From: a virus | Length of the DNA: 5,714 bases | Virus record (IMG/VR): IMGVR_UViG_3300045988_000736 | Coordinates: 1-5,714 of that record | Strand: one strand, 5' to 3' | In this document: positions 1 through 5,714 of the stretch, one piece after another | Layout of the letters: each line of letters opens with the position of its first letter | How positions within the stretch are numbered: position 1 is the stretch's first letter | The notes under the pieces: model-generated | Told to the model about the DNA's origin: nothing | What the model saw: the letters and a program-made list of their open reading frames with translations, nothing else | The model's database searches: none | Made by a program: the position numbers and the translations under genes

Positions 1-47
1 ACCGGGAAATGCCAATCTACAGTATCCCGGGCATCGAAAGAATTTAA
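1..47 (+). CDS. 3' terminal fragment of the major capsid protein gene (duplicate of 5620..5666 due to terminal redundancy; ...YREMPIYSIPGIERI*)
   Basis: Same frame and sequence as the end of ORF 4005..5666; stop TAA at 45-47. Confidence 0.85.
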   Translation, partial: REMPIYSIPGIERI

Positions 48-95
48 AAAATGTACAAAACACACAAAAAAGAAAGCTGAAACAACAAAAAAAAT
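1..95. repeat. 95-nt terminal direct repeat. It is identical to 5620..5714, so the window wraps around a circular (or terminally redundant) genome with a 5619-nt unit length
   Basis: Base-by-base comparison of window start and end: accgggaaatgccaatctacagtatcccgggcatcgaaag...aaaaaaat occurs at both 1-95 and 5620-5714. Confidence 0.95.
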
Positions 96-130
96 TACAA
101 AAGCTTTCTGCAGAAAAGAAGAAAGGAGAA

Positions 131-157
131 AGCCGGGCAAAGACCCGGCTATTTTTT
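131..157 (+). terminator. Rho-independent terminator-like hairpin downstream of VP1. 7-bp GC-rich stem AGCCGGG/CCCGGCT, 6-nt loop, followed by ATTTTTTAA
   Basis: Inverted repeat 131-137/144-150 followed by T6 run 152-157, located 84 nt after the VP1 stop. Confidence 0.6.
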
Positions 158-158
158 A

Positions 159-1049
159 ATGGGTACACTTTTATCATGGATGCCGTACATCATGCAGGGG
201 CTTAGCCTGCTAACAAGCGTTGCAATGAGCTCAAACCAGAGCAGTGCAACAAGCAGTCAGAAAGCCGGAGAAGAAACAACCAGCGGAAGCGAAACAACAA
301 CCGGAAGTCTGACAGCACCACAACAAATTGGCACAACACAGATTGGAACACCAACAGGCATCACCACATACAACAATCAGGGTAGCGTAAACACGGCAAA
401 CGGCATGAGCTTTTTAAGCTCTATTATCAGTAATCTGATGAACGCAGGAAGCCAAGCAAGCGCAAAAAAGTACAACTCCGCAGAAGCAGCAGCAGAAAGA
501 GCATTCGCAAAGGAAATGCGCGGCACAGCATATCAGGACACTGTAAAGGACATGATCGCGGCGGGCATCAATCCAATACTAGCGGCAAACAACGGCGCTA
601 CAGCAACGCCAAGCGGAGCAAGTGCAAGCATCGGAACACAGCACTACAACCAGCAGAGCGCACAAGCGGCGGCAGTGTCAGCGATGTATGAATACGGCAA
701 TAACACGGCAGAGCTAGCAAACAGATACCTCGAACTAGCAAAAAAAAGCACAAGCGCAAAGCAATACCATTCTGCAAAGAGCTTTAATGAAGCAGCAAGC
801 AGTTTAGCACAATCAAGCGCAAAACAGGTAAGTAATTACAACTATGCGGCAAACAACTTGCTCGACGAGCTGGGAGACGCAGGAGACAAGCTAAGAGACG
901 CAGGAGACAAAGCAGCCGAATCAGCAAAAGGCGCAGGCAGAAAAGCAGCATCGGCCTTTAAAGACAGTTGGGAAAAAGGCGGAAAAAACATCACACCATA
1001 TCCGTCAATCAATCCTAATCAGATAATGGGCGCGTATAGAGGAGATTAA
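159..1049 (+). CDS. VP2-like minor capsid / DNA pilot protein (296 aa)
   Basis: ATG 159, long ORF directly downstream of VP1 as in gokushovirus synteny. Low-complexity A/S/Q/N/T/G-rich protein with the motif YQDTVKDMIAAGINPILAA, which resembles the conserved AG(L/I)NP region of microvirus pilot proteins. No SD directly upstream (see findings). Confidence 0.6.
   Translation: MGTLLSWMPYIMQGLSLLTSVAMSSNQSSATSSQKAGEETTSGSETTTGSLTAPQQIGTTQIGTPTGITTYNNQGSVNTANGMSFLSSIISNLMNAGSQASAKKYNSAEAAAERAFAKEMRGTAYQDTVKDMIAAGINPILAANNGATATPSGASASIGTQHYNQQSAQAAAVSAMYEYGNNTAELANRYLELAKKSTSAKQYHSAKSFNEAASSLAQSSAKQVSNYNYAANNLLDELGDAGDKLRDAGDKAAESAKGAGRKAASAFKDSWEKGGKNITPYPSINPNQIMGAYRGD
874..911 (+). repeat. Tandem ~21-bp direct repeat inside VP2 (gagacgcaggagacaa x2), encoding DAGDKLR/DAGDKAA
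   Basis: Copy 1 at 874-890, copy 2 at 895-911. Confidence 0.7.
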
Positions 1050-1051
1050 GT

Positions 1052-1225
1052 TTTCAACAGTTTCAACAGTTTCAACAGGTTTTCAACAAAGAAAACACAA
1101 AAAAAATTGGCCGTAAACGAACTTTCAACAGTTTCAACAAATTTTCAACAAAACTTTCAACAAAAAAGAAGGTGATAAATATGCGTATCAACGCTAAAAA
1201 TTAGACATTTCAACAGTTTAAACAG
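1052..1225. repeat. Iteron-like array of about 10 copies of the 9-bp motif TTTCAACA(G/A). Copies start at 1052, 1061, 1070, 1081, 1123, 1132, 1143, 1155 and 1208, plus a degenerate TTTAAACAG at 1217. Spacing within clusters is mostly 9-12 bp
   Basis: Direct reading of the VP2-Rep intergenic region; copies form clusters 1052-1089, 1123-1163 and 1208-1225. Confidence 0.85.
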
Positions 1226-1361
1226 GCCCTACTTCTACTACTACAACAAGTAATATATAGAACAAATCAAAATAAAAGCCCTTCCGCACAAAGTTAAGGT
1301 TTCCCAGCACAGGGACACCAAAGAGAAGAGCATAAAGAATAAAAGTATGCAGAGTAGAACG

Positions 1362-1390
1362 GGGGCCGTCAAACTACCGTTGACGGCCCC
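1362..1390 (+). other. Perfect hairpin: 11-bp stem GGGGCCGTCAA/TTGACGGCCCC with 7-nt loop
   Basis: Inverted repeat 1362-1372 / 1380-1390. Confidence 0.8.
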
Positions 1391-1392
1391 TT

Positions 1393-1426
1393 TGCGACAG
1401 CGTCCCCTAGCGCGGGGACTGTCGCA
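1393..1426 (+). other. Hairpin with 13 bp (TGCGACAG[CG]TCCCC / GGGGACTGTCGCA), a 2-nt bulge and a 6-nt loop
   Basis: Inverted repeat 1393-1407 / 1414-1426. Confidence 0.75.
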
Positions 1427-1443
1427 TCGATAGATACTAATGT

Positions 1444-1482
1444 ATTGCGCGCACGCGCGCGAAACGCGCACGCGCACGCAAT
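1444..1482 (+). other. Imperfect GC-rich hairpin (15 of 18 bp, AAA loop). It is built from two 15-nt strictly alternating purine-pyrimidine (CG/CA)n tracts and is Z-DNA-prone
   Basis: ATTGCGCGCACGCGCGCG-AAA-CGCGCACGCGCACGCAAT; alternating Pu/Py 1447-1461 and 1465-1479. Confidence 0.65.
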
Positions 1483-1548
1483 TTAAATCAAAAACGAAAG
1501 AGAGGTGTCAACTGGCGCAAGATAGACAAGTAAGCTTGCGCCAAACCT

Positions 1549-2544
1549 ATGCCATGTACAAATCCGAATGTTTTCCAGATGAACACGAAAAAACCAACCA
1601 TGTGGGGAAGCCTAAACTACCTAAAGAAACAGAACCTAGAACAAACCATCATGGACGGCGTAAAAAAAGGAAACCTCGCATTATTGCCATGCGGAAAATG
1701 TGAATACTGCCGAAAACAGATAGCAGACCAATGGGCAACGAGAATAGAACTAGAGGCACAAAAATGGAAAGATGTGATTTTCGTTACAATGACCTACGAC
1801 GAAGAACACATACCATACGGCGAGATTGTAAAAGGCTATCAAAGCATCCAATCACAAACAGTAAGCAAAAGAGACGTACAACTATTTTTAAAACGTCTCA
1901 GAAAAGCATACAAAAAGCCGATAAAATACTTCATAGCAGGAGAGTACGGAGACAGAACAAAAAGACCACACTACCACGGTATTTTTTTTGGACTAAAACC
2001 AGAGGATGGAGTATGGTACAAAAACCAGAAAGGCAACGCATACTTTAAAAGCGAATGGCTCACAAACCTATGGGGAAAAGGCTTTGTAGACTTTTCACCA
2101 GCGGCACCGGGTTCATATGCATACGTGGCACAGTACGTCAATAAAAAAGCAATCGGCGCAGAGCAGAGCGCAAAATACTGGATGCAAGGCCGTGAACCAG
2201 AGTTTAGAATCATGTCAAAAGGCATCGGGGAAGAGTACCTAAAAGAGCACATGAACGAGATACTAGAAACCGACAACATCACATGTGCAGGAGGACGGCA
2301 GAAAAGACCGCCAAGATACTTTGATAAGCTTCTTGATAAGGATACCAACAAAGACACTGAAAGCTATTTTAAGGCACATTCTGACGAGCTGAGAGCGGTA
2401 AGAGCCAAAAGACGAAGAAACGCAGTGCTTAGCCTTGTAAACTTAGAGCAAAACACCAGTGTTCCATACTCAAAATACCTAGAGATACAAAAAGAAAAAG
2501 ACAAGCAAAAACAAAAGTGGAGAGAGCCAAAAGAAACCTTATAA
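1549..2544 (+). CDS. Rolling-circle replication initiation protein (Microviridae VP4 / gene A-like, 331 aa)
   Basis: Zn-finger-like PCGKCEYCR near the N-terminus. RCR motif I FVTMTYDEEH, motif II PHYHGIFFG (HUH) and motif III YVAQYVNKK (catalytic Tyr pair). The exact start is uncertain (in-frame ATGs at 1549, 1579, 1600 and 1651), and none has a canonical SD. Confidence 0.9.
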   Translation: MPCTNPNVFQMNTKKPTMWGSLNYLKKQNLEQTIMDGVKKGNLALLPCGKCEYCRKQIADQWATRIELEAQKWKDVIFVTMTYDEEHIPYGEIVKGYQSIQSQTVSKRDVQLFLKRLRKAYKKPIKYFIAGEYGDRTKRPHYHGIFFGLKPEDGVWYKNQKGNAYFKSEWLTNLWGKGFVDFSPAAPGSYAYVAQYVNKKAIGAEQSAKYWMQGREPEFRIMSKGIGEEYLKEHMNEILETDNITCAGGRQKRPPRYFDKLLDKDTNKDTESYFKAHSDELRAVRAKRRRNAVLSLVNLEQNTSVPYSKYLEIQKEKDKQKQKWREPKETL

Positions 2545-2609
2545 CCAATAAAACAGAACGCCTGCAGCGGGCAAGTGTGCGCAACGTCAAAATTTTTCAA
2601 CGAAAAACC

Positions 2610-2638
2610 TTGACTTTTGCACACACTGACAATATAAT
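2610..2638 (+). promoter_or_regulatory. Near-consensus sigma70-type promoter: -35 TTGACT (2610-2615), 17-bp spacer, -10 TATAAT (2633-2638). Predicted TSS is about 2645
   Basis: Read directly from the sequence. Located 30 nt upstream of an AAGGAGG SD and the first gene of the small-gene/peptidase/VP1 block. Confidence 0.65.
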
Positions 2639-2668
2639 AAAACCAGAACGCAAAAAGGAGGTAACACA

Positions 2669-2785
2669 ATGGCACATAGAAGCGGCGCAGGACGTGGAGA
2701 CCAGCGGAAATTTACGCAGACCGCAAAGCGGACGAAAAACATCAACGTCCGACCGAAGGTCAGCCGGGGCGGCATCCGGCTGTAA
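2669..2785 (+). CDS. 38-aa highly basic arginine-rich peptide MAHRSGAGRGDQRKFTQTAKRTKNINVRPKVSRGGIRL. It is a candidate DNA-binding/packaging protein (phiX174 J / gokushovirus ORF8-VP5 analog). It is not in the supplied ORF track because it is short
   Basis: Perfect SD AAGGAGG (2655-2661) 7 nt upstream of ATG 2669; net charge about +10; first ORF after the strong promoter. Confidence 0.55.
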   Translation: MAHRSGAGRGDQRKFTQTAKRTKNINVRPKVSRGGIRL

Positions 2786-2819
2786 CATTCAAAATAGAAC
2801 AATGAAAGGAGGTGAACAA

Positions 2820-2927
2820 ATGGACTTTAATGAAAGCATGAACATTTTTCTGAAAATCCTCGCAATGCTGGATAAGATTTACCACGCAATTGTGAAGGAA
2901 GAGGAAGAGACTGAAGAGGAGGAGTAA
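2820..2927 (+). CDS. 35-aa peptide MDFNESMNIFLKILAMLDKIYHAIVKEEEETEEEE. It has an amphipathic helix plus a poly-Glu C-tail and is translationally coupled to the downstream peptidase
   Basis: SD AAAGGAGGTG (2805-2814) 5 nt upstream of ATG 2820. The TAA stop (2925-2927) sits 1 nt before the peptidase ATG, and its GAGGAGGAG codons form the peptidase SD. Confidence 0.45.
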   Translation: MDFNESMNIFLKILAMLDKIYHAIVKEEEETEEEE

Positions 2928-2928
2928 G

Positions 2929-3324
2929 ATGTCACGTGAAGAATACAGCTTATTTAATCAGAGCACCCACCAAATAAGTGAACACTTCAAAGTTAGAGAA
3001 TTTGCACAAAAAGACTTCCAATGCGACAAGGTAATTGTAGACACGGAACTTATAAACGTTTTGGAAGATATACGCGCACATTTCAACAAACCTGTGATTG
3101 TAACCTCTGGATACCGGACACCGGAATACAATGCAAAAATCGGCGGTGTAAAAAACTCACAACACACAAAGGGAACAGCGGCTGATATCAAAGTATCTGA
3201 AGTTCCGGCAAGATGGATACAAAAGTATCTAAAAGACAAATATCCGAATAAATACGGCATCGGAAGTTATTTAACTTTCACACACATCGACATAAGAGCT
3301 AAAAAAGCACGTTGGAGGGGCTAA
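2929..3324 (+). CDS. Peptidase M15 family (M15_3 / VanY-like D-Ala-D-Ala or L-Ala-D-Glu peptidase fold) cell-wall hydrolase, 131 aa. Putative endolysin or entry-associated peptidoglycan hydrolase
   Basis: Motifs SGYRTPEYN, SQHTKGTAADI (His...Asp zinc ligands) and FTHIDIR (second His); SD GAGGAGGAG 5 nt upstream of ATG 2929. Confidence 0.85.
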   Translation: MSREEYSLFNQSTHQISEHFKVREFAQKDFQCDKVIVDTELINVLEDIRAHFNKPVIVTSGYRTPEYNAKIGGVKNSQHTKGTAADIKVSEVPARWIQKYLKDKYPNKYGIGSYLTFTHIDIRAKKARWRG

Positions 3325-3327
3325 AAA

Positions 3328-3582
3328 ATGACACTGAAATTCTACAGTTTTCATGATGCAATCACGAATGGATACAGCAGTCCTTTCTTACAGCAAAACA
3401 GGGCGCAGGCAATCCGCACAGCAAAGTGGAAGGCAAACGAATCAAAACTGCAGGAAATCGAGGACATCAGCCTGATGGAGCTGGGCGACTTCAACACCGA
3501 AACCGGCGAAATGTTCGGAGCGAAACCGAACCAGCTGTGCAAGCTGGTAGACCTTAAGGAGACATACAATGTTAAATCCTAA
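3328..3582 (+). CDS. Hypothetical protein, 84 aa (MTLKFYSFHDAITNGYSSPF...)
   Basis: SD GGAGGGG (3314-3320) 7 nt upstream of ATG 3328; overlaps the peptidase stop; no recognisable domain. Confidence 0.6.
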   Translation: MTLKFYSFHDAITNGYSSPFLQQNRAQAIRTAKWKANESKLQEIEDISLMELGDFNTETGEMFGAKPNQLCKLVDLKETYNVKS

Positions 3583-3988
3583 CATTCTGGTACGGTACTA
3601 CGGAGTACCAACCGAAAGAGTGACAAGCAAAACCGGCAGCGAAACCGCACCAACGTGGAAAGCGGTAAAGCGACCGAACGGAACAACGGACTACATCCGA
3701 CAACCGGACGAAAATGTATACGAAAAAATTCAGAAAGCGGGCGAGGGATACGACCTTGCAAGCGCAATCGCGAGACTGGAAGCCGGAGATTTTTCCATCA
3801 AAGCAAAGAGCACAATCTACACCGAGGGCACACCACTGGAAAACCTGCCTAAGGACATCGTAAACATGCACGAAACGGCACAGAAGGCAGCGGAAACGCT
3901 GGAAGAGCTGAAACAGACACAGCAGACCGAACAGCCGAAGCCGGAAGAAAAAAAGAAAGAGGTGAAGCAGAACGAACCGGAACAGTGA
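3569..3988 (+). CDS. Hypothetical protein, 139 aa, with a charged K/E-rich C-terminal tail. It is a candidate internal scaffolding (VP3-like) protein by size and its position immediately upstream of VP1
   Basis: SD AAGGAG (3556-3561) 7 nt upstream of ATG 3569. It overlaps the preceding ORF by 14 nt in another frame. The functional assignment rests only on position and size. Confidence 0.65.
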   Translation: MLNPNILVRYYGVPTERVTSKTGSETAPTWKAVKRPNGTTDYIRQPDENVYEKIQKAGEGYDLASAIARLEAGDFSIKAKSTIYTEGTPLENLPKDIVNMHETAQKAAETLEELKQTQQTEQPKPEEKKKEVKQNEPEQ

Positions 3989-4013
3989 AAGCCATTTCGC
4001 GCAAGTGCCGCGA

Positions 4014-5666
4014 ATGGAAAGACCGCGGTCAAAATTTGATCGCGGTCATCAGCTCCTGACGACCATCAACGAGGGCGAACTGGTACCAATCTATATGGAT
4101 GAAGTACTACCGGGTGACACGGCACGGGTACAGCTTAACGGGCTTATCAGAATGAGCACTCCTATCTATCCTATCATGGATAACTGTTACATGGACACAT
4201 ATTTCTTCTTTGTGCCTGCAAGACTTTTGTGGGAACACTTTGAAAATATGTTCGGTGAAAACGACACCAACTATTGGGCAGAAGATACGGAGTATTCCAC
4301 TCCAAAATGCACCATCGGCGGCACAAGCGGCCTTGCAAATGGTTCCATCGGTGACTATTTCGGACTGCCGACACAGGTAAATAACGCGCTGGAAGTAAAC
4401 GCATTGCCTGCACGAGCATACTGCAAAATCTACAACGAGTGGTTCCGAGATGAAAATCTTGAAGCGCCGCTTATGTTGGGATACAAAAAGACGGATGACG
4501 GCGGCACAAATGCAGACGCAAGCAAAGTAACCGAAAATGCAAACGCACTCGAACAGACGACCAACACCAACGAAGCAATGTTGTATGCAATGAAACCGGC
4601 AAGGGCGGGCAAGTTCCACGATTATTTTACATCTTGTCTTCCTTCACCGTTGAAAAATGCAGAACCGGTAACGCTGCCAATGACAGGAGCAGCAGGAGTA
4701 TATGCATACTCAGACAGAGAGCTAAAAAATAAAACAGAAGCAACCATAAACAGCTTTACAAACCAAACGGACTTCGCAGGAACAACGAATCAAAGGCTTT
4801 ACGACACAATCCTGTGGGCAAATGAGCCAGAACAATTATACGTAGGAAACGGAACAGCAAAAGAACAAATGTGGTTGGGCGCAGACCTGAGCAAAGTAAC
4901 CTCAACAACGATCAACGACTTGCGACAGGCCATAGCGCTGCAGCACATCTTCGAGAGCGATGCCAGAAACGGCACGAGGTACAGAGAATTCCTTTCCGGG
5001 ACGTGGGGCGTAACAAGTCCGGACAGCCGTCTGCAAATTCCTGAATACATCGGCGGGCAACGCATTGCAATCAATGTGAATCAGGTGGTGCAGACCAGCC
5101 AGACGGACACGACGACCGGACAGGCACTGGGCAACACGGCGGCATACAGCCTAACGACTTGTTCAAAGCAGATGGCAGACTATGCAGCTACGGAGTACGG
5201 CTATATCATCGGGCTGGCGGTGGTACGAGTAGAACACAGTTACCAACAGGGTCTTGGAACCAAATGGACGCGCGGCGGTCGATTCACGTACTACGACCCG
5301 AGATTAGCAGCACTAGGAGAACAGCCAGTATACAACAGAGAAATCTACGCAGACGGAAGCGAAAAAGATAGCCAGATTTTTGGCTATCAGGAGGCTTGGG
5401 CGGATTACCGATACAAGCCTTCCTACGTAACCGGAGAAATGAGGTCAAACTATCAGACGTCTTTGGATGCATGGCACTATGCAGACGACTATGACAAGCT
5501 GCCGACACTATCGGCAGAGTGGATTCAGGAAGGACGTGAAAACATCGATAGAACTATTGCGGTAACGTCCGCAGTAAGTCACCAATTCTTATGTGATTTC
5601 TGGTTCAACGAAACGTGGTACCGGGAAATGCCAATCTACAGTATCCCGGGCATCGAAAGAATTTAA
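4014..5666 (+). CDS. Major capsid protein VP1 (Microviridae F-protein family, about 550 aa)
   Basis: Conserved N-terminal region RSKFDRGHQLLTT...PIYMDEVLPGDT and DTYFFFVPARLLW, typical of gokushovirus VP1. ATG 4014 is preferred; the ORF track begins at an in-frame GTG at 4005. Stop TAA is at 5664-5666. Confidence 0.93.
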   Translation: MERPRSKFDRGHQLLTTINEGELVPIYMDEVLPGDTARVQLNGLIRMSTPIYPIMDNCYMDTYFFFVPARLLWEHFENMFGENDTNYWAEDTEYSTPKCTIGGTSGLANGSIGDYFGLPTQVNNALEVNALPARAYCKIYNEWFRDENLEAPLMLGYKKTDDGGTNADASKVTENANALEQTTNTNEAMLYAMKPARAGKFHDYFTSCLPSPLKNAEPVTLPMTGAAGVYAYSDRELKNKTEATINSFTNQTDFAGTTNQRLYDTILWANEPEQLYVGNGTAKEQMWLGADLSKVTSTTINDLRQAIALQHIFESDARNGTRYREFLSGTWGVTSPDSRLQIPEYIGGQRIAINVNQVVQTSQTDTTTGQALGNTAAYSLTTCSKQMADYAATEYGYIIGLAVVRVEHSYQQGLGTKWTRGGRFTYYDPRLAALGEQPVYNREIYADGSEKDSQIFGYQEAWADYRYKPSYVTGEMRSNYQTSLDAWHYADDYDKLPTLSAEWIQEGRENIDRTIAVTSAVSHQFLCDFWFNETWYREMPIYSIPGIERI

Positions 5667-5714
5667 AAAATGTACAAAACACACAAAAAAGAAAGCTGAA
5701 ACAACAAAAAAAAT
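5620..5714. repeat. Second copy of the 95-nt terminal repeat (identical to 1..95)
   Basis: Exact identity with window start. Confidence 0.95.

Follow-up and report, generated by a model that had tools for sequence, protein, structure and literature searches.

A putative DnaA-box unwinding module resembling bacterial oriC in gut gokushoviruses

The basal unwinding system (BUS) of bacterial origins combines two co-oriented DnaA boxes with a short GC cluster, 3'-GAT-5' repeats carried by the other strand and AT-rich DNA (PMC8287927, PMC7561715). The repeats, DnaA-trios, are defined as three or more copies of 3'-[G/A]A[T/A]-5' (PMC8287927, PMC7561715), and the trio of C. difficile reads 5'-CACCTACTACTATTACTACTATGA-3'. 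The rule used to search for such systems allows the box near the trios at most two mismatches from the species motif and the second box at most four, with a spacer of up to 16 nt, most commonly 13, and at least three trios (PMC8287927). Here we describe a layout of this kind in viral DNA, namely in the IMG/VR record IMGVR_UViG_3300045988_000736 (positions 1 to 5,714, 5,714 nt; hereafter the window, meaning the whole stretch analysed), which holds the genome of a gokushovirus. An array of TTTCAACA repeats lies between its VP2-like gene and the gene for its Rep protein, VP4, and from sequence comparison we consider it quite probable that these repeats are host DnaA boxes, double-strand sites of the variant TTTTCAACA, within an oriC-like unwinding module at 1051-1285.

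The repeat module and its conservation in phages

A first-pass annotation of the window had described an iteron-like array at 1052-1225. The copies and coordinates it gave, nine of TTTCAACA(G/A) and one degenerate, were recovered exactly: TTTCAACAR is found at 1052, 1061, 1070, 1081, 1123, 1132, 1143, 1155 and 1208, all on the plus strand, and a degenerate tenth copy, TTTAAACAG, at 1217-1225. Start-to-start distances are 9, 9 and 11 bp in the first cluster, 9, 11 and 12 bp in the second and 9 bp in the third, in agreement with the 9-12 bp reported. This spacing had been read as a helical turn; a 9-bp head-to-tail distance means instead that the boxes abut one another, an arrangement also present at the host origins described below. 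The whole window holds 10 TTTCAACAR matches against 0.21 expected, and none of 200 dinucleotide-preserving shuffles reached 10 (maximum 2). In 20,000 such shuffles of 1050-1290 alone, TTTCAACA occurred 0.11 times on average and three times at most, against nine in the window, so that the composition-matched test proposed with the annotation places the motif far above the A-rich background. A single outlying copy, TTTCAACAA, at 3081-3089, falls inside the M15 peptidase gene, probably by coincidence of the coding sequence; in close relatives, too, one copy lies apart from the array.

The register in which the repeats function probably starts one base further 5' than TTTCAACAR, giving the 9-mers TTTTCAACA, GTTTCAACA and CTTTCAACA with the box starts listed in Table 1. 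All ten boxes are co-oriented and point toward a GGCC cluster, a run of CTA triplets and an AT-rich stretch, elements at 1225-1285 that the first-pass annotation, which found the repeats, had missed. TTTTCAACA fits the DnaA-box consensus TTWTNCACA everywhere except at position 6, where A replaces C. The box nearest the trios, ATTTCAACA (1207-1215), has one mismatch from TTTTCAACA, two from TTWTNCACA and three from the strict E. coli box TTATCCACA, and the second, GTTTAAACA, lies within four mismatches, the lineage motif used for this comparison being the one inferred from the origins of candidate hosts and not from DoriC. From the first box to the first trio there are 13 nt (1216-1228), ending in the GC-rich GGCC. 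The five trios, each with a central A, lie on the strand opposite to the 5'-TTATCCACA-3' reading, the strand relation seen in 63 host origins and in C. difficile, and the plus strand facing them carries overlapping 5'-TnnT-3' motifs of the type of the DnaD recognition element (DRE). Directly 3' of the trio run stands CAACAAGTA, followed by the AT-rich stretch to about 1285; the 40 nt after the trios are 75% AT, compared with 54% genome-wide and a host mean of 79%. Element order and orientation are those of the BUS of bacterial oriC in Bacillus subtilis incC and C. difficile oriC2 (PMC6669920, PMC8287927, PMC7561715), which has in common with the window the 13-nt spacer, five triplets of the 3'-GAT type, AT-rich DNA downstream and co-oriented box clusters upstream.

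All four GenBank relatives share the three-cluster layout, as do nearly all of the 69 IMG/VR relatives for which the upstream region was available. A scan of viral sequences for three tandem motif copies matched more than 120 contigs, most of them microviruses whose VP1 and VP4 are only 38-49% and 32-44% identical to those of the window, and a second scan with a trio-plus-core pattern, free of bias toward TTTCAACA, recovered the same family. The motif search in related phages suggested by the first-pass annotation thus found the array in homologous modules of 147 unique microvirus sequences (VP1 38-100% and VP4 32-100% identical to the window), in which the whole module of about 230 nt keeps one order: four boxes, spacer, four boxes, spacer, two boxes, GC cluster, trios, CTACAACAAGT(T)A and AT-rich DNA. 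Mean identity to the window by column is 0.88 for boxes and 0.89 for trios plus core, compared with 0.55 for spacers. Homologous box positions interchange among TTTTCAACA, TTTTCCACA, TTATCCACA, TTATTCACA and GTATCAACA, and variation therefore stays within the DnaA-box family. In cluster A, whose box columns are conserved across 118-147 unique modules, the homologue of the fourth box is the consensus box TTTTCCACA in 39 modules; the position homologous to 1142-1150 is a perfect canonical box, TTATCCACA, in 19 unique modules and TTTTCCACA in five; and the second trio-proximal box is TTTTCCACA in 30. At position 6 the 147 modules hold TTCAACA 1046 times, TTCCACA 99 times, TTCGACA once and TGTCGAA not at all. 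Thirty-three GenBank microvirus records, from faeces of human, pig, monkey, mink, raccoon and dog, contain the module and none annotates it, in line with the earlier remark that such an array is no described hallmark of Microviridae, of which we likewise found no description.

In the window clade the module is found between VP2 and VP4 on the coding strand; all divergent clades (e.g. L074, L077, L127) carry it downstream of VP4 and on the other strand. A recombinant (L034, 1600-1900) combines a window-type VP4 with an inverted module downstream of it, and its VP2-VP4 spacer carries none; judged from these arrangements, the module appears to behave like a movable cassette. A 39-kb human-gut contig with tape-measure and tail genes (L140), siphovirus-like and without a match to VP1 or VP4, has an intergenic module on the minus strand at about 1725-1995, comprising nine TTTCAACA boxes, then TTTCAACAGTTTCAACCGCCCCTACTACTA and a very AT-rich stretch, with no microvirus core. 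Other non-microvirus viral contigs (L130/L182, L143, L178, L149/L154, L157, L091/L106) carry intergenic arrays of 3-11 (A)GTTTTCAACA copies with no obvious trio run, and the use of such boxes by gut phages may be common. Two tandem consensus boxes 12 nt apart, TTTTGCACA within TTTTTTGCACA, were observed on the minus strand of the 4.5-kb genome of Chlamydia phage 2 (L283, AJ270057; about 1784-1805 of the reverse complement), and no run of trios lies close to them. Large contigs caught by the core or the three-copy pattern were mostly chance matches in Thr/Ser- or Gln-rich coding repeats.

The same layout at bacterial chromosomal origins

The genomes of 185,579 species, one per bacterial or archaeal species, were scanned with the pattern TTTCAACA N1-3 TTTMMAC N0-7 CTACTAC. 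The scan returned 93 loci, about 10 of them chance matches in coding sequence; 63 had a DnaA homologue upstream and/or a DnaN homologue downstream, 40 had both, and a Pfam check confirmed DnaA and beta-clamp for three flanking pairs. Most loci come from gut metagenome-assembled genomes (MAGs) of Ruminococcus, Oscillospiraceae, Acutalibacteraceae and unnamed Clostridia, and others from three lactobacilli, one Prochlorococcus and further taxa. The box pair, GC cluster and trios at 1207-1243 of the window are thus found again at the dnaA/dnaN-flanked origins of 63 bacterial loci. Among these, 56 of the 63 have a 13-nt spacer, the modal triplet run is five (30/63) and the next 40 nt are on average 79% AT, so that the host modal values for spacer and triplet number are those of the window. 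The pattern places no constraint on the 300 nt upstream of the matched pair, and there TTTCAACA outnumbers every other 8-mer, with 263 copies in 51 loci against 62 of TTTCCACA, the next; the motif search in candidate host chromosomes that the first-pass annotation had called for therefore has a clear answer, TTTCAACA being the dominant 8-mer at matched dnaA-dnaN origins. At the three lactobacillus loci the upstream box of the same pair is TTTTCAACA.

When the window, one relative, the siphovirus-like contig and two origins of the Ruminococcus type are aligned, they prove colinear from the first cluster of boxes to the AT-rich stretch. In blastn comparisons of the module with host origins, only box-driven, colinear similarity of about 70% was seen, which does not bear out a recent capture from a sampled host. 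Nor does the module appear to be a prophage att or dif site, since the chromosome scan gave origins and no integrated microviruses; one further hit (L237) comes from a free microvirus contig of 5.7 kb that had been binned with a MAG. By motif matching alone, the host of the phage is probably a gut Clostridium of the Ruminococcus/Oscillospiraceae type.

The DnaA encoded next to the most TTTCAACA-rich origins, those of Ruminococcus and Oscillospiraceae, has DHSTIVY[A/S] in place of the canonical DHTTVLHA (loci L206, L225, L234, L235, L244, L248, L251, L255, L258 and others), a segment within the helix that recognises the TnCACA half-box (PMC5742627). Loci with such a DnaA hold 115 boxes with A at position 6 versus 18 with C, small numbers from a biased sample, and initiator and box may have co-evolved, giving a lineage-specific box. 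A further group of loci, in gut MAGs labelled 'Alphaproteobacteria' (L192, L202, L210, L236, L240, L253, L261, L271, L278, L280, L281), shows the box pair, GC cluster and CTACTACAAC, with TGTTAAAA or TGTTGAAA as boxes. At L271, the only one of them with Pfam-checked flanks, the neighbours are VirB4-like and SufBD-like genes and not dnaA or dnaN, and the layout could represent either a plasmid origin or a chromosomal origin set among other genes.

Candidate binders and functions of the module

Host DnaA, and not Rep, is the favoured binder of the repeats because the same motif and layout occur at chromosomal origins, in microviruses with divergent VP4 and in the contig L140, which lacks VP4; the only protein common to these settings would be one of the host. 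Both the analogy with DnaA-box clusters and the host factor named as a possible binder in the first-pass annotation are consistent with this, the former in box consensus, layout and host origins, the latter through the same arrays at dnaA-dnaN origins. Its other candidates, Rep/VP4 or a basic peptide, conflict with these arrays and with the VP4-less contig. Iterons for VP4 or another phage protein would suit an array that stands next to VP4 in all the genome organisations encountered, before the gene in the window clade and after it in the others, and HUH-Rep replicons such as geminiviruses and circoviruses use short iterons. Yet the motif remains unchanged while VP4 ranges from 32 to 100% identity, is found also at bacterial origins and on a tail-gene contig, and has variants that follow the DnaA consensus; with a 9-bp unit at 9-12 bp spacing and no covariation with the initiator, even where VP4 is only 32-44% identical, the comparison with plasmid iterons does not stand, and we regard this explanation as highly improbable. 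What survives of the earlier interpretation is a non-coding, non-random putative binding platform tied to replication initiation. Scarcely credible, in our view, is another host regulator such as Spo0A, which would couple the phage to sporulation, for which phi29 provides a precedent: the reverse complement of the motif, TGTTGAA, does match the 0A box TGTCGAA at six of seven positions and the candidate hosts include spore-formers, but with TTCGACA occurring once and TGTCGAA (TGNCGAA) never in the 147 modules, the variants go to TTCCACA instead. The box 13 nt before the trios moreover stands where DnaA must sit, which favours DnaA over Spo0A, and the same box occupies this position in lactobacilli, which we take to lack Spo0A.

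With DnaA as the presumed binder, ATP-DnaA would fill the ten co-oriented boxes on the double-stranded replicative form and, starting at the trio-proximal pair (1207-1224), grow as an oligomer along the trio (minus) strand, melting the duplex at 1229-1285. Judged from the layout, such binding and opening would serve phage DNA replication, most likely by exposing the core CTACAACAAGT(T)A to the HUH Rep VP4 or by loading the host helicase so that the replicative form can replicate in theta fashion. The module is kept in either orientation relative to the genes, and this independence fits a duplex-level function, be it helicase loading for theta-type replication or simple DnaA capture. We tentatively propose, as a possibility, that a large lineage of gokushoviruses from mammalian guts captured or converged on the origin-opening module of its host, whose DnaA would start replicative-form replication by one of these two routes. 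The theta-type variant would permit a cell-cycle-coupled, plasmid-like maintenance, that is, a carrier state without integration.

The boxes might instead bind DnaA in order to titrate or sense it, shutting down host initiation or timing phage development, with opening not their purpose. Ten boxes per genome, multiplied by many replicative-form copies, would make a strong sink; the gut phage contigs L130/L182, L143 and L178 carry TTTCAACA arrays without obvious trios; and in T5-like phages eight DnaA boxes, TTATCAACA variants among them, are conserved at a site considered to have no connection with replication (bioRxiv 10.1101/866236). Titration needs boxes alone, however, yet the spacer, GC cluster, trios and AT-rich part are conserved equally (0.89 versus 0.88) and match the host modal values, which points to selection on unwinding itself, and we therefore consider a pure sink or regulator unlikely. 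A role at the single-stranded DNA (ssDNA) stage, in which DnaA would recognise box hairpins and/or the trio strand on the incoming single strand and assemble an ABC-type primosome for the complementary strand, appears very unlikely. It would draw on an inverted consensus box, TGTGGAAAA, which abuts the first TTTTCAACA in relatives of the L002/L003 type and some divergent ones and makes a hairpin possible, and on the divergent clades, in which the coding strand carries the TAG (trio) strand. The window, however, has no inverted box, and its array at 1050-1260 folds as ssDNA no better than shuffles (z = 0.07), so that it lacks the hairpin of an ABC primosome and was rejected as a structural ssDNA element; the strongly structured ssDNA is the neighbouring 1286-1548 (z = -7.7). 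Module orientation relative to the coding strand also differs between clades, so that no single ssDNA reading is conserved. In L002, L003, L004 and many relatives, TGTGGAAAA just before cluster A could pair with the first TTTTCAACA in a 10-bp ssDNA hairpin with one mismatch, a feature missing from the window subclade; only L003-type relatives could form a hairpin TGTGGAAAAC-TTGA-GTTTTCAACA.

The core CTACAACAAGT(T)A is near-invariant in all microvirus modules examined, while CAACAAG is absent from all 63 host origins and the core also from L140; the core is therefore tied to something specific to microviruses. VP4 is an HUH nuclease that needs a single-stranded substrate, and the core is a candidate for its recognition or nick site. 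The viral-strand origin of phiX174, a 30-bp gpA site nicked between G4305 and A4306, offers a loose likeness: CAACTTG/ATATTAATAAC there, and CAACAAG/T(T)A followed by AT-rich DNA here. Aligned by eye, CAACAAGTAATATATAG of the core region and CAACTTGATATTAATAAC of phiX174 agree at about 10 of 18 positions, a weak match in an AT-rich context, and the phiX174 origin differs in lying inside gene A with no flanking DnaA boxes.

Several points weigh against a DnaA-driven unwinding module. All support for it is comparative, and the host origins were found with a phage-derived pattern, which introduces a selection bias. The assignment of the boxes leans on a lineage-specific variant taken from those origins, with ATTTCAACA three mismatches away from TTATCCACA, and the AT-rich stretch of the window (72-75%) is slightly below the host average (79%). 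Host assignment is indirect, as no prophage or CRISPR link to a host was found, and we know of no need for DnaA in a rolling-circle phage. Chp2, phiMH2K and SpV4 were examined and lack the module, which is thus no general microvirus requirement and no universal gokushovirus feature. Finally, whichever way the module faces, the strong A>T skew at four-fold sites follows the coding strand (+0.48 and +0.49), and module inversion with unchanged skew weakens, without excluding, the case for a strand-specific Rep nick site within the module.

Other explanations were set aside. A coding repeat is not supported, as neither the minus-strand 39-aa open reading frame (ORF) at 1072-1191 nor a mini-ORF at 1181-1204 is conserved and conservation runs box by box, not codon by codon; L003-type relatives keep the mini-hairpin of the second spacer (as ACGT/ACGT) but have no ATG. 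A VP4 promoter or operator was rejected because no sigma-70-like site occurs on the plus strand at 1000-1600 and the module lies downstream of VP4, on the other strand, in most clades. No Rfam family matches anywhere in the window.

Genome context and comparison with known replicons

The circular genome measures 5,619 nt, an exact terminal redundancy of 95 nt (1-95 = 5620-5714) showing that it was assembled with an overlap, and all genes lie on the plus strand (Table 1). Its identity is 94% with Gokushovirus WZ-2015a, a virus from human faeces, and about 80% with three further human-gut gokushoviruses. The module lies within the 500-nt VP2-VP4 intergenic region and not at a chromosomal origin (dnaA-dnaN or equivalent); owing to this location it is a BUS-like element on a phage and falls outside the set of oriC sequences.

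Table 1 Genes and putative module elements in the window.
Feature	Positions	Strand	Details
VP2-like gene	159-1049	+	
Putative DnaA-box cluster A	1051-1088	+	four direct boxes: 1051-1059 TTTTCAACA, 1060-1068 GTTTCAACA, 1069-1077 GTTTCAACA, 1080-1088 TTTTCAACA
Spacer 1	1089-1121		sequence and length vary among relatives
Putative DnaA-box cluster B	1122-1162	+	four direct boxes: 1122-1130 CTTTCAACA, 1131-1139 GTTTCAACA, 1142-1150 TTTTCAACA, 1154-1162 CTTTCAACA
Spacer 2	1163-1206		4-bp mini-hairpin GCGT/ACGC at 1183-1194
Putative trio-proximal DnaA-box pair	1207-1224	+	1207-1215 ATTTCAACA, 1216-1224 GTTTAAACA
GC cluster GGCC	1225-1228		between box pair and trios
Putative DnaA-trio run	1229-1243	-	five triplets; plus strand CTA CTT CTA CTA CTA, minus strand 3'-GAT GAA GAT GAT GAT-5'
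Microvirus-specific core	1241-1252	+	CTACAACAAGTA (CTACAACAAGTTA in most relatives); near-invariant in microvirus modules
AT-rich stretch	1250-1285		in the position of a DNA unwinding element; AT 0.72-0.75, genome 0.54
Rep/VP4 gene	1549-2544	+	PF23343
M15 peptidase gene	2929-3324	+	
VP5 gene	3328-3582	+	
Scaffold-like gene	3569-3988	+	
Major capsid VP1 gene	4005-5666	+	PF02305

Between the module and VP4, the segment 1286-1548 folds as ssDNA far better than its shuffles (-59.3 kcal/mol) and contains four hairpins, at 1362-1390, about 1393-1426, about 1443-1483 (alternating CG/CA) and 1513-1543. Relatives of the L003 and L069 types lack the first three, which form an insertion; in divergent clades, too, the module is followed by CG/CA-rich repeats. 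The segment is a candidate complementary-strand origin. At 1502-1551, a hairpin TGGCGCAAG/CTTGCGCCA stands between a GAGGTG resembling a Shine-Dalgarno (SD) sequence (1502-1507) and the VP4 start (1549); compensatory changes are seen in L002 (GGCCCAAG/CTTGGGCC) and L003 (GGCACAAG/CTTGTGCC), and divergent clades lack it. This hairpin may control VP4 translation or bridge the SD sequence and the start codon.

Replication of Microviridae is thought to need only the phage Rep and host elongation and priming factors, and within the library searched, no paper on Microviridae, microviruses or gokushoviruses discusses DnaA boxes or trios of such phages; searching by motif string returned primers only. 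DnaA boxes on plasmids and phages are already known, while of a complete module of boxes, trios and DNA unwinding element (DUE) on a rolling-circle ssDNA phage we found no description. Its conservation in 147 microvirus sequences would imply a role for the host master initiator, of which none is known for Microviridae, and the ten boxes, five trios and one invariant core offer concrete sites at which to study the start of replication in abundant uncultured gut phages. If the proposed reading is right, the box variant and the DnaA recognition helix (DHSTIVY in Ruminococcus/Oscillospiraceae) would set host range, and the match between phage boxes and the unusual TTTTCAACA-rich origins of these bacteria could serve as a sequence-based host predictor for gut microviruses, filling a long-standing gap. 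The bacterial unwinding module would also appear to be portable, as both an ssDNA phage and a siphovirus-like contig carry it; this has implications for the evolution of origins and for replicon design in gut Clostridia that are hard to engineer.

Among mobile replicons, P1 oriR, pSC101, F, RK2 and R6K carry host DnaA boxes. Such plasmid and phage replicons have one to few auxiliary boxes beside the iterons of their own initiator, and the trio and DUE part has been reported in none; the window, in contrast, holds a complete unwinding module with no element-encoded theta initiator. Plasmid iterons of the RepA, pi or TrfA type are likewise direct initiator-binding repeats beside an AT-rich region, and they measure about 17-22 bp and covary with the Rep of their plasmid, whereas the unit of the window is 9 bp, constant across very different VP4 proteins and present on chromosomes as well. 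Titration loci of the datA type, also clusters of DnaA boxes outside oriC that are able to soak up DnaA, have no trio/DUE unwinding part, the part that in the window is conserved as strongly as the boxes. The injection-stop region of T5 resembles the window in its precise, conserved array of eight boxes, which includes the position-6 A variants and has been called reminiscent of oriC, but pairs its boxes in inverted repeats and has no proposed role in replication, unlike the complete module described here (bioRxiv 10.1101/866236). The closest counterpart is the BUS of bacterial oriC itself, from which the phage module differs in its setting, a 5.6-kb ssDNA phage encoding an HUH rolling-circle Rep in place of the interval between dnaA and dnaN, in having no second origin half (incAB/oriC1), and in the additional invariant core that it carries between the trios and the AT-rich stretch.

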